DNA from: an uncultured delta proteobacterium
GTDB lineage: Bacteria > Myxococcota_A > Polyangia > Palsa-1104
Length of the DNA stretch: 64,000 nt
Reading direction: 5' to 3'
NCBI GenBank assembly: GCA_963785725.1
Contig: CAWAWS010000026.1
Coordinates: forward strand, 192,001-256,000
A program made the position numbers. Below, piece by piece: positions 29,901 to 32,900 of this stretch. Positions within the stretch are counted from its first letter, which is position 1. Every line of letters begins with the position of its first letter.

Positions 29901-32900
29901 CGTCCTGCGAATCGAGCAGCGCGACAAGTCAGGGCGCGTGCGTGGACGAGCTGCGAGCACGGTCGGCTCGTCAACCGGCGATGTCCACTTCCACGGTTCC
30001 GCAGTCTGCAGTCACAACGAGCTGCACCGCGCCGAGACACTTTCGATCGCGTGCAGGAGCAACTGTCGCGCCACGCTGGGCTGCCGCGAGGCCCACGTGG
30101 GACAACGGCTTAGCGGCGCTCCTCGCGACAATCCGCGAGCGAGAGAATCCCCCACCTGTATCGCATCGGAAGCGAATTCACGTGGATCTGCCTTGGATGT
30201 CGGGAAAGATGATTGGCCGATATCGAATCGTCGTCGTCCTCAGATACAGACACCGACTCGAGCGGCCGAATCGGAAATGGGGCAATGCGGCGCGGCGATT
30301 AGGGCTCGAGCGATCGGACGTGCGCACGCAGTCGCGAGACCCGCGCCAGCGCTGCATCGACGGCGGCGGCGCCTTCGGCGTGGCTGGCGCGTGCGAGATC
30401 GAGCGCACGCTCGGCCGAGTCAGACACCGCGCGCAGTCGGGACCGGATCTCCGCTTCCAGCGTGCGCCGACTCTCGAGCACCCGCTCGATGAGGTCGTTC
30501 TGCAGGCGCGCGCTGTTCGTTTCCAGCATGTGTTGGAGGTAGGCTGCGGCGTCCTTCTCGATCGCCGCGAGCGATCGGCGCCGCGGCCGCACGGCATCGG
30601 CGATGCGCGTCCACACCGACTCGGGGACGACGGTCAACAGCTCGTGAAGGAAGAAGCGGCTCTTCACTCGAAATCCTTCGCCCATGATCGTCGGCGACAG
30701 TCCGCGGATGGGGCTCGCCGACAGAAAGCGGTTCGCCAGATCGACGAAGCGTTGCATCGACTCGCGGTAGAGCGCTTCGGCCGCCGCCTCCTCGTCGTGG
30801 AGCCGTGGCTCGAGCGAGTCTTTGGAGAGCTGTTGCGCGAGCGCGATCGCTCGTTGACGCAAGGCCGCGCCGCGCTCCTCGGTCGCGGCCAGCGCGACCG
30901 CCAGCGCCCGGAGGGTCGCGGCTCGCGCTTCGGCCAAGAAGGTCGCGCGCCGCCGGTCGAAGGTCGCATTCAGCCGCTCCTGCTCGGCGGTCATGCGGTG
31001 GCCGAGCTCGGCAAGGGCCGTCTCGGCCTCGGCCACACAGCGCTTGAGCGCGACGATGCGCTGCTCCGAGTCGGCGACCGGACGCGACAGCGCGCCCTGT
31101 CGTTCGTCGAGCTCGTGCAAGAGCTGCTGCGCGAGCAGCGAAAGGCCGCGCTCCTGCGCGAGGCGGACAGATCGGCTCCCGCGTGCGCGGCGAGCGTGCA
31201 CAGCGCCGCGTGCAGCTGTCGCCAGTCGTAGGTCTCGAGCCCGCGCAAGCGCTCCGTCGCGCTCACCTCGAACACCGGCGCCGCGCGACCGAGACGTTGG
31301 CCGACGATGCGCTGCGTGAACGCGATCGCCTGCCGGCGCGCGACCTCGCTCATGCGATCGGCCTTGTTGAGCACGAAGAGCAGCTGGCGAACGTGCTCGG
31401 CGACGGCGACGACCAAGTCCAGCTCGTCGCCGGAGATCGGCGGGTCGGCGCCCACGACAATCAGCGCCACGTCGATGTGGTGCAAAAAGCCGCGAGTCAC
31501 CGCCGTATTCCCTGCGAAGACCGACCCGATCCCCGGCGTGTCGACGAGGCACAGGCCCGACGCCAAGAGCGGGCTCGGCGTCGACAGCTCGACGAGGGCG
31601 ACGCCTTTGACGTTCTCGGGATTGGCGCTCTCGCAGACGAACTGTTCGATGTCGTCGGGATCGATGTCCTGCCATTGCCCGCTGACGAATCGGACGCGGG
31701 CGTGCGCGGCGCCTTCGCGAACGAGGGTGACCGCCGACGTCACGGGAATGACGCCGACGGGCAGGCGCTCGCGTCCGATGAGCGCGTTGATGAGCGTCGA
31801 TTTGCCGCGTTTGAATTGGCCGATGCAGGCGACGTAGAACAGTCCCTCGGCCGTGCGCTGCGCCAGCGCCTCGGCGTCGCGCGCGAGATCGGCCCGTCCG
31901 AGCTCCTGCGCGAGCGCCGCGGCGGACCGAATCGAGCTTTCGGCGCTGCGCGCGTTCACCTCGTCTCCTTCGTCAGTTGGGGCGGGCGCGAAGCCCGCGG
32001 TGTCCAATGTCGTAGGAGTCATTGGCCGTGCCCGATGGCACAGCGGTTCGGGCGAGCTCCACCGCCTCCATGGCGCGATGGTAGGGTTCCGCCGGCCGCT
32101 CGCAACCGATCTCACGTCGCTGTCGAGGGGAGGACGACGGGCGAGCTTCTCATGGCGAGGACAGGCTGGGTTCAGCGGCGGCGGGTCAGCGTGTTCTCCA
32201 GTCATCTCCCACTTGCGTCGCCGTAGTCGGACGACCAATCCAGTGCGCTTGTCCGGGCGAGCGGGTCCACACGAAGCGAACCTTGACCGGACGACCGTCG
32301 TCGTCATCGGTGCGTAGAACTCGCCGCAATCGCCGACGAAGCGCTGCACGGGGTCGGTCAGGCAACACCCGCTCTTGCCGAGATGCAGTAGATCGACAGC
32401 GCTGCTTCTTCACGTCGAAGGTGCGCGGGGCGAGTCCCGTGTAAGGCCATCGTTCTTGCCGGTGACGCGTTGGGGTAGCTGACCTCGTCGACGTTGACCA
32501 GGCCGCGAGAAACTGAGTGTGCGCATGACCAACGGGAACTCGACCACTCCTGACTGCGACGCCCGGTGCATGAGGCGCGGTTCGCATGTCCACTCCCCGT
32601 TCAGGAAGTCGAAGTCATGGAGGTCGAAGCGCTGGGCGCCGAAGTCGTGCGCGCAAACGCGGGCGCTCGCATGCACGGGCCGGCTTGGTCAATAGCCGGA
32701 GTGGATGCGCAAGCGGTGAGCACGCAGCCGGCCAGCCACACGGGGATGAAGAGCCTGTTCATTCTGTCGTTCTCCTCTGGTGTTGAACAGCGCGCCGGAG
32801 CGCTGGTCTGGGCGAAAATCGCGCTCTCATCTGCCTCGAACACTGGAGCAAGGCAAGGTCCAGGAATCGCGTGCGGCGCATTCGGCGGGCACGTTGCGTT

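Follow-up and report, generated by a model that had tools for sequence, protein, structure and literature searches.

A fluoride riboswitch directly ahead of a dynamin-like GTPase gene in an uncultured member of the Polyangia

Introduction

Why should a gene for a dynamin-like GTPase lie behind a fluoride riboswitch? This question is raised by a locus on contig C26 of an uncultured delta proteobacterium of the class Polyangia, which was analyzed within a 64-kb stretch of DNA, referred to here as the window. In the parts of the literature available to us, the fluoride response is described in terms of export, of homeostasis of pH and phosphate, and of additional copies of enzymes that are sensitive to fluoride. 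The gene classes named there as lying under fluoride riboswitch control are exporters, Na+/H+ antiporters, pyrophosphatase, enolase, haloacid-dehalogenase-like enzymes, formate hydrogen lyase, chorismate mutase, mutS, and K+/Cl- transporters (PMC11139923; Weinberg 2010). Here, we describe the riboswitch, its predicted switch, the GTPase, and the recurrence of the pair in other bacteria.

Results

The riboswitch aptamer

Our analysis supports a genuine riboswitch directly ahead of the dynamin-like GTPase gene. RF01734 is the sole Rfam match above cut-off within the window (37.0 bits compared to a gathering score of 34, E 1.3e-6, model positions 1-64) and is placed in the same-strand 5' leader of the gene, whose GTG start codon (31959-31957), preceded by GAAGGAG, follows 46 nt past the aptamer (Table 1). 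This agrees with the genome-wide survey's note, which had put a riboswitch about 45 nt ahead of a dynamin-family GTPase, and the Dynamin_N domain of the encoded protein was recovered as well.

Table 1. Features of the riboswitch-GTPase locus; positions refer to the window.
Feature	Position	Strand	Evidence
Fluoride riboswitch aptamer (crcB motif, RF01734)	32006..32075	-	37.0 bits
Expression platform (predicted)	31965..32018	-	predicted folds
Ribosome-binding site AGGAG, 5-nt spacer, GTG start	31957..31969	-	sequence reading and ORF start
Dynamin-like GTPase gene, first frame (G domain and start of helical stalk)	31168..31959	-	translation, Dynamin_N, alignments
Single frame change	31165..31170	-	alignments with relatives
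Dynamin-like GTPase gene, second frame (helical neck/trunk half)	30299..31167	-	translation, alignments

The aptamer is composed of a P1 stem (GGCG/CGCC), a second stem (CGCUGUGCC/GGCACGG), and a pseudoknot of GGAG with CUCC. Both helices are found in the aptamer of the locus and four of five pseudoknot pairs are formed, the fifth position being a C opposite A. This C after GGAG is unique among 62 aligned aptamers, 61 of which carry a U, and the fifth pair is U-A in 60 of the 61 distinct aptamer rows. Thus, one pseudoknot pair is lost because C replaces an otherwise invariant U and, judging from this exchange at the U that closes the pseudoknot, fluoride binding by the aptamer may be weaker.

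The helices and the pseudoknot of the aptamer class are supported by covariation: 95.5% of the cells are paired across the 62 aptamers, a value as high as this was reached by none of 500 shuffles, and the slid controls all stayed at or below 51.5%. With a custom model, R1, the aptamer of the locus scores 60.8 bits, which is not an independent value because the aptamer (as L001) was among the 24 sequences from which the model was built. Its Rfam score is the lowest among the five cut-off-passing DLP-linked aptamers of the class; a further DLP-linked aptamer, from genome G062, reaches 28.7 bits and is thus under the cut-off.

A predicted translational switch

In the predicted fold of the leader, the 3' tail of the aptamer, CUCCU (32018-32014), and the bases next to it pair with a region ending in the Shine-Dalgarno (SD) sequence AGGAG (31969-31965), and a GC hairpin (31998-31982) caps this anti-SD helix. 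The helix is common to the minimum-free-energy and centroid folds and would be the OFF state. The fold energies of the leader are no better than those of shuffles, the whole-segment z-scores (-1.27 and -0.93) not being significant. All six leaders folded show pairing of the tail CUCCU with the SD or the start region, an agreement that is partly built in because any SD is complementary to CUCC. Pairing of the aptamer tail with the ribosome-binding site in the predicted folds suggests a translational ON switch.

The locus resembles translational fluoride riboswitches (RF01734) in aptamer sequence, in helices, in the GGAG-CUCC pairs of the pseudoknot (P1 loop with 3' tail), in its position in a same-strand 5' leader, and in the predicted ON logic, by which the ribosome-binding site would be freed. 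In contrast to known fluoride riboswitches, this copy carries a C at the invariant U, and its controlled gene is outside the classes named in the literature available to us. A terminator-based switch is not supported, since a consensus scan, which is crude for high-GC genomes, returned no terminator-like site between 29700 and 32700; an equally crude consensus scan of the same region returned no sigma-70-like promoter.

The GTPase gene and its frame change

The GTPase is encoded in two successive frames. The first contains a Dynamin_N domain (87.2 bits versus a cut-off of 27, E 1.7e-24, residues 43-200) with intact GTPase motifs G1 (GQFKRGKS, 47-54), G3 (DTPG, 140-143), and G4 (NKAD, 198-201), and is 63% identical to the intact orthologue of genome G159. 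The second frame matches no Pfam family by itself and carries the conserved tip motif GFRVKSRFF. It can be aligned all the way with the C-terminal halves of relatives, with no additional stop before its terminal TAA at 30301-30299. Because neither protein half reaches the cut-off of any NCBIfam family, the subfamily is without a curated name. The homologous reading leaves the first frame at ...AHAGADL and continues in the second with VRLAQERG..., a junction at which relatives have SG(A/S)xLV(R/L)xAE. Apart from this one frame change, the homologous reading is open end to end.

In the same assembly, rpoB matches in five pieces and rpoC in seven, each in differing frames, and one dnaE copy is found in many pieces with internal stops. 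Since these genes are also cut into several frames, the split of the GTPase gene into two ORFs is probably an assembly indel error and not the mark of a dead gene, and the earlier reading of a probable indel is strengthened by the frameshifts in essential genes. A programmed frameshift was rejected: the junction is without a slippery heptamer, and uninterrupted ORFs of 520-700 aa are present in 72 of the 80 relatives described below.

The gene stands alone in the window, with a ricin-type lectin gene and a DUF1254/DUF1214 gene as neighbors. Five ORFs (32076-33098, and overlapping) separate the riboswitch from the next clear gene; none has a Pfam match, and no upstream partner gene was found there.

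Recurrence of the riboswitch-GTPase pair

Conservation analysis supports that riboswitch and GTPase gene are paired far more often than chance would allow, and also well outside the class first surveyed. Within the class, RF01734 has 31 matches in 29 of 151 genomes, our own included, which reproduces the survey's count of 28 among 150 other genomes. The GTPase gene lies directly downstream of six of the 31 matches, namely in our own genome and in five genomes of five other genera (42-53% identity), the same set in which a dynamin-like gene had been noted before. This set includes the two best riboswitches of the class, with 55.8 and 50.6 bits. Moreover, the G159 orthologue, the closest one with 63% identity, has a canonical riboswitch of 63 bits which ends 6 nt before its ATG.

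Outside this survey, a same-strand riboswitch was detected at most 3 kb upstream in 40 of 80 relatives, in 16 of these at most 400 nt from the protein match; as the relatives were picked by similarity from at least 577 and many are closely related Acidobacteriota, these counts do not represent independent events. According to their record names, the 80 relatives belong to Acidobacteriota, Myxococcota, Binatia, Verrucomicrobiia, Gemmatimonadota, Methylomirabilia, and others. Four of five sampled loci without a riboswitch within 3 kb have one on the same strand 3.1-7.4 kb upstream. In contrast, none of 12 control loci of ordinary dynamin paralogues has a riboswitch.

The genes found between riboswitch and GTPase in relatives code for CrcB, DUF190, pyrophosphatase, enolase, Na+/H+ exchanger, and Usp proteins, and these families were seen among 30 of the 61 intervening ORFs scanned. 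Taken with the counts in the class, the relatives, and the controls, these operon partners bear out the linkage part of the earlier proposal that the GTPase is a member of the fluoride regulon.

Predicted structure and subfamily

Because the gene of our own genome carries the frame change, the intact G159 orthologue was modelled with AlphaFold in its place. The model (pLDDT 85.5) has helices at 248-293, 297-360, 366-420, and 467-535, which form neck and trunk helical hairpins after the G domain, and our own protein aligns with it throughout. A short tip loop, predicted at low confidence (pLDDT 56-64), bears the conserved basic-aromatic motif GFRxxSR[LF][FY]. The best fold matches are IniA (6j72, E 1.6e-20) and BDLP (2j69), and the nearest solved sequences are those of Nostoc BDLP, Campylobacter DLP, and IniA.

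IniA of Mycobacterium (isoniazid-inducible; PDB 6j72/6j73) is the best structural match over 594 columns, also matches the G domain by sequence (E 7e-16), and is likewise a single chain of similar size (about 550-600 aa). IniA is induced by stress and is not a housekeeping protein, a feature that the GTPase would share. The similarity is one of fold only: identity is about 20% and the TM-score 0.38, and the GTPase locus has neither an iniB/iniC-like partner nor an adjoining second dynamin gene. Moreover, whereas IniA is induced by cell-wall drugs, the inducer here would be fluoride, acting via an RNA switch.

With BDLP of Nostoc punctiforme (2j68/2j69) and the Campylobacter DLP1/DLP2 pair (5owv), the GTPase shares the order of a G domain and then long helical hairpins as neck and trunk, and the tip loop of the orthologue model stands where BDLP bears its membrane paddle. 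However, identity is 16%, and the short, low-confidence tip loop has a basic-aromatic motif in place of a demonstrated hydrophobic paddle. The GTPase is solitary, whereas the other two dynamins of its own genome form a tandem pair on contig C19, to which it is about 27% identical. In a quick tree, a branch with 98% SH-aLRT splits the GTPase from 10 housekeeping-type paralogues, a separation that is partly expected since the groups were picked by similarity. The best explanation is that the GTPase is a member of a distinct subfamily found behind fluoride riboswitches in many bacterial lineages.

CLC and other fluoride genes

A whole-genome search returned a second RF01734 copy at contig positions 28946-29027 of C26 (+), which with 31.4 bits is under the cut-off and lies ahead of an intact CLC gene, as the genome-wide survey's note had it. 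This CLC is 79% identical to a riboswitch-led CLC of the same-genus genome G103 and contains GNNLV, GREGT, and GEVTP, motifs which we take to mark fluoride-specific CLCs. In the class survey, the riboswitch is followed by CLC at 11 of 31 matches, by a Na+/H+ exchanger at seven, and by CrcB at three; for CLC, the earlier count was 10 of 30. Tblastn identified the genes downstream of loci L002 and L024 as CLC. No CRCB family match is present in our own genome (88% complete), in accordance with the earlier statement.

These classical units, crcB (Fluc), CLC-F, and Na+/H+ antiporter, are thus preceded by the same riboswitch as the GTPase. Their proteins move ions, whereas we know of no ion-transport role for a dynamin-like GTPase.

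Discussion

We consider it reasonably probable that a fluoride riboswitch with translational ON logic controls a distinct GTPase subfamily which acts at the membrane in fluoride stress, and that the split of the gene is an assembly indel. Without fluoride, the 3' strand CUCCU of the aptamer would pair with the SD AGGAG and translation would be blocked, as the predicted folds suggest. With fluoride, going by the known architecture of the class, this strand would be held in the pseudoknot with the GGAG of the P1 loop, so that the ribosome-binding site would be free and the GTPase made. Family membership and the operon partners in relatives point to a GTPase that would act on the cytoplasmic membrane like other bacterial dynamins, by remodelling, sealing, or fission. 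It would work in the fluoride stress response beside the riboswitch-controlled CLC-type exporter elsewhere on the contig. Membrane repair or remodelling under fluoride stress is what we infer from membership in the dynamin/BDLP family and from the predicted fold.

More tentatively, the subfamily, with its P-loop GQFKRGKS and its tip GFRxxSR[LF][FY], could be a dedicated, widespread, and undescribed fluoride effector that is induced by the riboswitch and, as HF enters and acidifies the cell, protects or remodels the cytoplasmic membrane. At its boldest, this reading has the GTPase also respond to fluoride directly, since GDP plus metal fluoride would lock the G-domain dimer.

Another reading is dosage compensation or a decoy. 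Metal-fluoride complexes (GDP with AlF4- or MgF3-) trap large GTPases, and the riboswitch might simply provide extra GTPase as compensation or decoy, as with enolase and pyrophosphatase, in which case the protein would have no fluoride-specific membrane task. Such a role is compatible with the 'transition-like' dynamin-family structures 5gom and 9kff among the fold matches, which presumably use metal fluorides. It would also fit the riboswitch-led strings of relatives in which the GTPase gene occurs together with those for enolase and pyrophosphatase, fluoride-sensitive enzymes that are produced in larger amounts according to the part of the review available to us (PMC11139923). However, the GTPase is no spare housekeeping copy: its identity to the C19 pair is low, the quick tree sets it apart from the paralogues (again, with groups picked by similarity, a partly expected result), and it is encoded by a single riboswitch-linked gene whereas the housekeeping dynamins form a pair. 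We regard dosage compensation or a decoy role as unlikely.

It is rather improbable that the locus is decaying, with a true pseudogene, a degenerating riboswitch, and nothing functional left in this organism. The frameshift, the unique C at an invariant aptamer position, and the lowest score among the five DLP-linked aptamers above cut-off could be taken as signs of decay, as could an in-frame TAG in the G080 copy of the GTPase and the absence of the gene from four searched genomes of the same genus, of which one is just 53% complete. In contrast, the alignment of both protein halves with relatives spans their whole length and is free of stops, and the GTPase motifs are intact. Moreover, assembly error by itself would be expected to produce one frame change in 1.66 kb, since the essential genes rpoB, rpoC, and one dnaE copy carry several each.

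A chance neighborhood of a weak riboswitch-like match, only 3 bits over its cut-off, and an unrelated GTPase gene is extremely improbable and is refuted by the linkage counts, as the pairing is shared by five other genera of the class, by the closest orthologue, and by 40 of 80 distant relatives, but by none of the 12 control dynamin loci, with just 31 riboswitches across 151 genomes.

The favored reading, a riboswitch-controlled GTPase acting at the membrane, would add an apparently undescribed arm to the fluoride stress response. No link between a fluoride riboswitch and a dynamin was found in the literature searched, a set that lies apart from the gene lists of Baker et al. 2012. Neither 'dynamin' nor 'GTPase' occurs in the text and supplements of Weinberg 2010 or in the available part of a 2024 review (PMC11139923). 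Among the matches listed for bacterial dynamins and fluoride, as far as their content was accessible, none concerns fluoride stress.

For the organism itself, what looks like a pseudogene probably stems from the many indel errors of the assembly. If our reading is true, membrane remodelling by a GTPase would join the known defences against fluoride as one of a different kind. To our knowledge, the natural triggers of bacterial dynamins are mostly unknown, and NaF together with a defined RNA switch would then offer a simple chemical inducer for experiments on a bacterial dynamin.

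A fluoride riboswitch leads the gene of a dynamin-like GTPase

The fluoride riboswitch is the leader of a gene that encodes a bacterial dynamin-like GTPase, and its match to RF01734 is the only Rfam match above the cut-off in the window. Repeating the Rfam search and re-reading the frames returned the coordinates and figures given for this locus in the genome-wide survey's note. A covariance model was built from 24 aptamers of the class, and 62 matches from this genome and related loci were aligned. In this alignment, which was fitted to the model and so leans towards the tested structure, 95.5% of the cells are paired, a value that none of 500 shuffles reached and that compares with 44–51.5% in slid controls. 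Changes on both sides are seen in 10 of the 15 pairs. Both helices of the aptamer and its pseudoknot are thus supported. In the aptamer alignment A5, several loci carry compensatory changes of the pseudoknot, GGGG with CCCC or GAGG with CCUC in place of GGAG with CUCC. The aptamer studied here is the only one of the 62 with a C, not a U, directly after GGAG; the U usual at this position is the partner of the A in GACUCC in 60 of 61 distinct rows. The replacement explains the modest score of the aptamer, and may mean weaker fluoride binding or a further assembly error.

The product of the frame that starts with the GTG at 31959 has the whole Dynamin_N domain (87.2 bits, residues 43–200) and contains the motifs GQFKRGKS, DTPG and NKAD. 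Near 31167 the homology shifts to a second frame, which ends with the stop at 30299; the junction ...AHAGADL/VRLAQERG... has SG(A/S)xLV(R/L)xAE as its counterpart in relatives and amounts to a one-base shift. The gene may be truly decaying. Each half, however, aligns with relatives to its end with no stop within. No slippery sequence is present at the junction. The survey's note had suspected an indel, which the state of other genes bears out as probable: in the same assembly the match to rpoB breaks up into 5 pieces and that to rpoC into 7, with changes of frame between pieces and stop codons inside the matches; of two dnaE-like loci, one is intact and the other split into many (about 9) pieces. 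Since essential genes could not be so broken in a living cell, the assembly holds many indel errors, and one frame change in 1.66 kb is expected from it. We therefore consider the break probably an assembly artefact; any "split gene" or "pseudogene" of this genome carries the same caveat.

Upstream of the riboswitch, about 1 kb (32076–33098) holds only ORFs without a Pfam match; this stretch could serve as a long leader or as a promoter region, or could contain a gene hidden by assembly indels. The downstream lectin gene is probably a separate unit because about 400 nt lie between it and the GTPase gene; its product has C-terminal ricin-type beta-trefoil domains (RicinB_lectin_2, 100.7 bits) and a weak match to a CDtoxinA domain (24 bits).

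Features of the locus and of loci compared with it. Positions without prefix are those of the window; G000 is this genome, G080 another genome of the class, and L numbers are cut-out loci.
Feature	Location	Strand	Details
Fluoride riboswitch RF01734	32006–32075	-	Rfam 37.0 bits, gathering score 34, E 1.3e-6, full model
Dynamin-like GTPase gene	30299–31959	-	two frames
DUF1254/DUF1214 gene	33099–34517	-	upstream neighbour
Ricin-type lectin gene	28321–29901	-	downstream neighbour, 526 aa
rpoB/rpoC	G000:C6:184843-193165		outside window, broken matches
dnaE-like	G000:C2:93647-96772		outside window, broken matches
CLC gene	L002:1646-2983 (G000:C26)		outside window, 445 aa
Tandem ordinary dynamin-like genes	G000:C19:135466-141983 (L117, L118)		open frames 736 and 991 aa, without riboswitch
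In-frame TAG	L036:5793-5795 (G080:C36)	-	relatives have D/E/Q/G
Changed pseudoknots (A5)	L038:84-153, L053:1007-1076, L041:231-301, L052:2765-2843, L079:6424-6494
AAA_16/STAND-like NTPase genes	L044:2208-2981, L054:2090-2827, L059:2193-2972, L060:1023-2783

The pairing within the class

RF01734 has 31 matches in 29 of the 151 class genomes, this one included. The gene behind is a CLC gene in 11 of the 31, a Na+/H+ exchanger in 7, a dynamin-like GTPase in 6, CrcB in 3, and other or unclear in 4. The six GTPase cases are this genome and five genomes of five other genera (42–53% identity), which reproduces the survey's count. With wider flanks, four of these five relatives have uninterrupted genes of 584–658 aa (starts set by hand; the 658-aa gene probably starts further downstream). 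The fifth, in G080, follows the riboswitch with the highest score in the class (55.8 bits) and contains an in-frame TAG; a nonsense mutation, read-through or an error could each account for it.

G159, which belongs to the same family but another genus, is the one genome of the nearest 20 with an orthologue (63% identity, 559 aa), and a canonical 63-bit riboswitch ends 6 nt 5′ of its ATG. The search found no orthologue in four same-genus genomes, three of which have only paralogues of 27–28% identity; G152 (same genus, 53% complete) gave no match at the threshold used. None of 12 control loci of ordinary dynamin paralogues, among them the tandem pair of this genome, has the riboswitch; such a paired arrangement is usual for bacterial dynamins.

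As the survey's note had it, a second, weaker riboswitch copy (31.4 bits, below the cut-off) lies on the same contig before a CLC gene, and it is the sole other match of the genome. This CLC gene is intact and encodes GNNLV, GREGT and GEVTP, which we take to be marks of fluoride-specific CLC antiporters. The genome (88% complete) gave no match to the CrcB family.

Relatives beyond the class

Four intact proteins were aligned, and a pattern search with this alignment against one-genome-per-species contigs gave at least 577 relatives. The best 80, many of them closely related so that counts are not independent events, are mostly labelled Acidobacteriota, the others Myxococcota, Binatia, Thermoanaerobaculia, Verrucomicrobiia, Gemmatimonadota and Methylomirabilia; 72 of the 80 genes are uninterrupted at 520–700 aa. 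Our covariance model has 57 matches in the 592 kb of these loci, as against 31 matches in 151 whole genomes in the class survey. A same-strand riboswitch lies upstream within the 3-kb flank in 40 of the 80, at a distance from the protein match of up to 400 nt in 16, 401–1500 nt in 10 and more in 14; of five loci without one in 3 kb, four have it on the same strand and contig 3.1–7.4 kb upstream. The riboswitch–GTPase pairing is widespread.

Between riboswitch and GTPase gene, 61 ORFs were found, and the 30 scanned include CrcB, DUF190, inorganic pyrophosphatase, enolase, Na+/H+ exchanger and Usp, as well as AAA_16/STAND-like NTPases and one HEAT-repeat protein. These are largely classical fluoride-response genes according to passages of the review PMC11139923. 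In several relatives (three labelled Acidobacteriota), the AAA_16/STAND-like NTPase gene stands immediately 5′ of the dynamin-like gene within the riboswitch-led string, and its product may be a partner protein of the GTPase; no such gene adjoins the GTPase gene in the window. Loci L038, L053, L090, L040, L056, L077 and L079 carry 2–4 fluoride riboswitches within ~7.5 kb, some divergent, and look like "fluoride islands" with separate switches for pyrophosphatase, GTPase and other genes.

A candidate translational switch

The aptamer is followed by GGACACC, a GC hairpin, CCCAACUGACGA, AGGAG, ACGAG and the GTG, and no terminator-like site was found by a scan around gene and leader. In both the MFE and centroid folds, CUCCUACGACAUUGG, the 3′ strand of the aptamer with the following bases, pairs with CCAACUGACGAAGGAG, which terminates in the Shine-Dalgarno sequence, and the GC hairpin caps the helix; the fold energy is no better than that of shuffles (z -1.27, -0.93). 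A similar fold appears in the leaders of five related dynamin genes, and so in all six folded, although CUCC is complementary to any Shine-Dalgarno sequence and this pairing is thus partly built in. The tail partner is GCAGGAG in G147, GAGGAGG in G013 and GGAGG in G080; in G159 and G062 it is the first codons past the start. Because the CUCC strand doubles as pseudoknot partner, fluoride binding should let the pseudoknot take this strand and thereby free the ribosome-binding site, which suggests a translational ON switch.

The GTPase and its possible role

Among solved proteins, Nostoc BDLP (E 5.6e-18), a Campylobacter DLP (1.4e-17) and IniA (7.2e-16) come closest in sequence, in the G domain only. 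An AlphaFold model of the G159 orthologue, made with a 40-row alignment (pLDDT 85.5, pTM 0.69), places four very long helices after the G domain and a low-confidence loop (residues 421–455) at the far end. Foldseek places IniA first (E 1.6e-20) and BDLP next (7.1e-19), with TM-scores of only 0.35–0.38, as is usual for such flexible proteins. The tip loop, with its conserved motif GFRxxSR[LF][FY], is a plausible membrane-binding element.

In a quick tree, a branch with 98% SH-aLRT splits 38 subfamily members from 10 housekeeping paralogues, a separation partly expected from groups picked by similarity. Within the subfamily, class sequences are scattered among other phyla; this scatter, like the lack of the gene in same-genus genomes, fits an accessory gene that travels with its riboswitch. 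The main rival to a membrane role is that the cell simply makes up for GTPases inhibited by fluoride, as it does for enolase and pyrophosphatase; the riboswitch-linked GTPase, however, forms a deeply separate subfamily and is no spare copy of the housekeeping pair.

Dynamins are reportedly not among the riboswitch gene classes of Baker et al. 2012. Neither "dynamin" nor "GTPase" occurs in the 8 supplementary files of Weinberg 2010, in four of its main-text passages on crcB, or in the searched text of the 2024 review PMC11139923. The literature searched yielded no fluoride riboswitch tied to a dynamin or dynamin-like protein, by titles no paper on GTPase genes behind fluoride riboswitches and, by the titles and opening abstract lines of the papers listed, no bacterial dynamin tied to fluoride stress. 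In this unit a known riboswitch class would drive an effector class for which this literature gave no description. The riboswitch–dynamin unit is real; its GTPase is presumably induced by fluoride and, we hypothesize, acts on the membrane.
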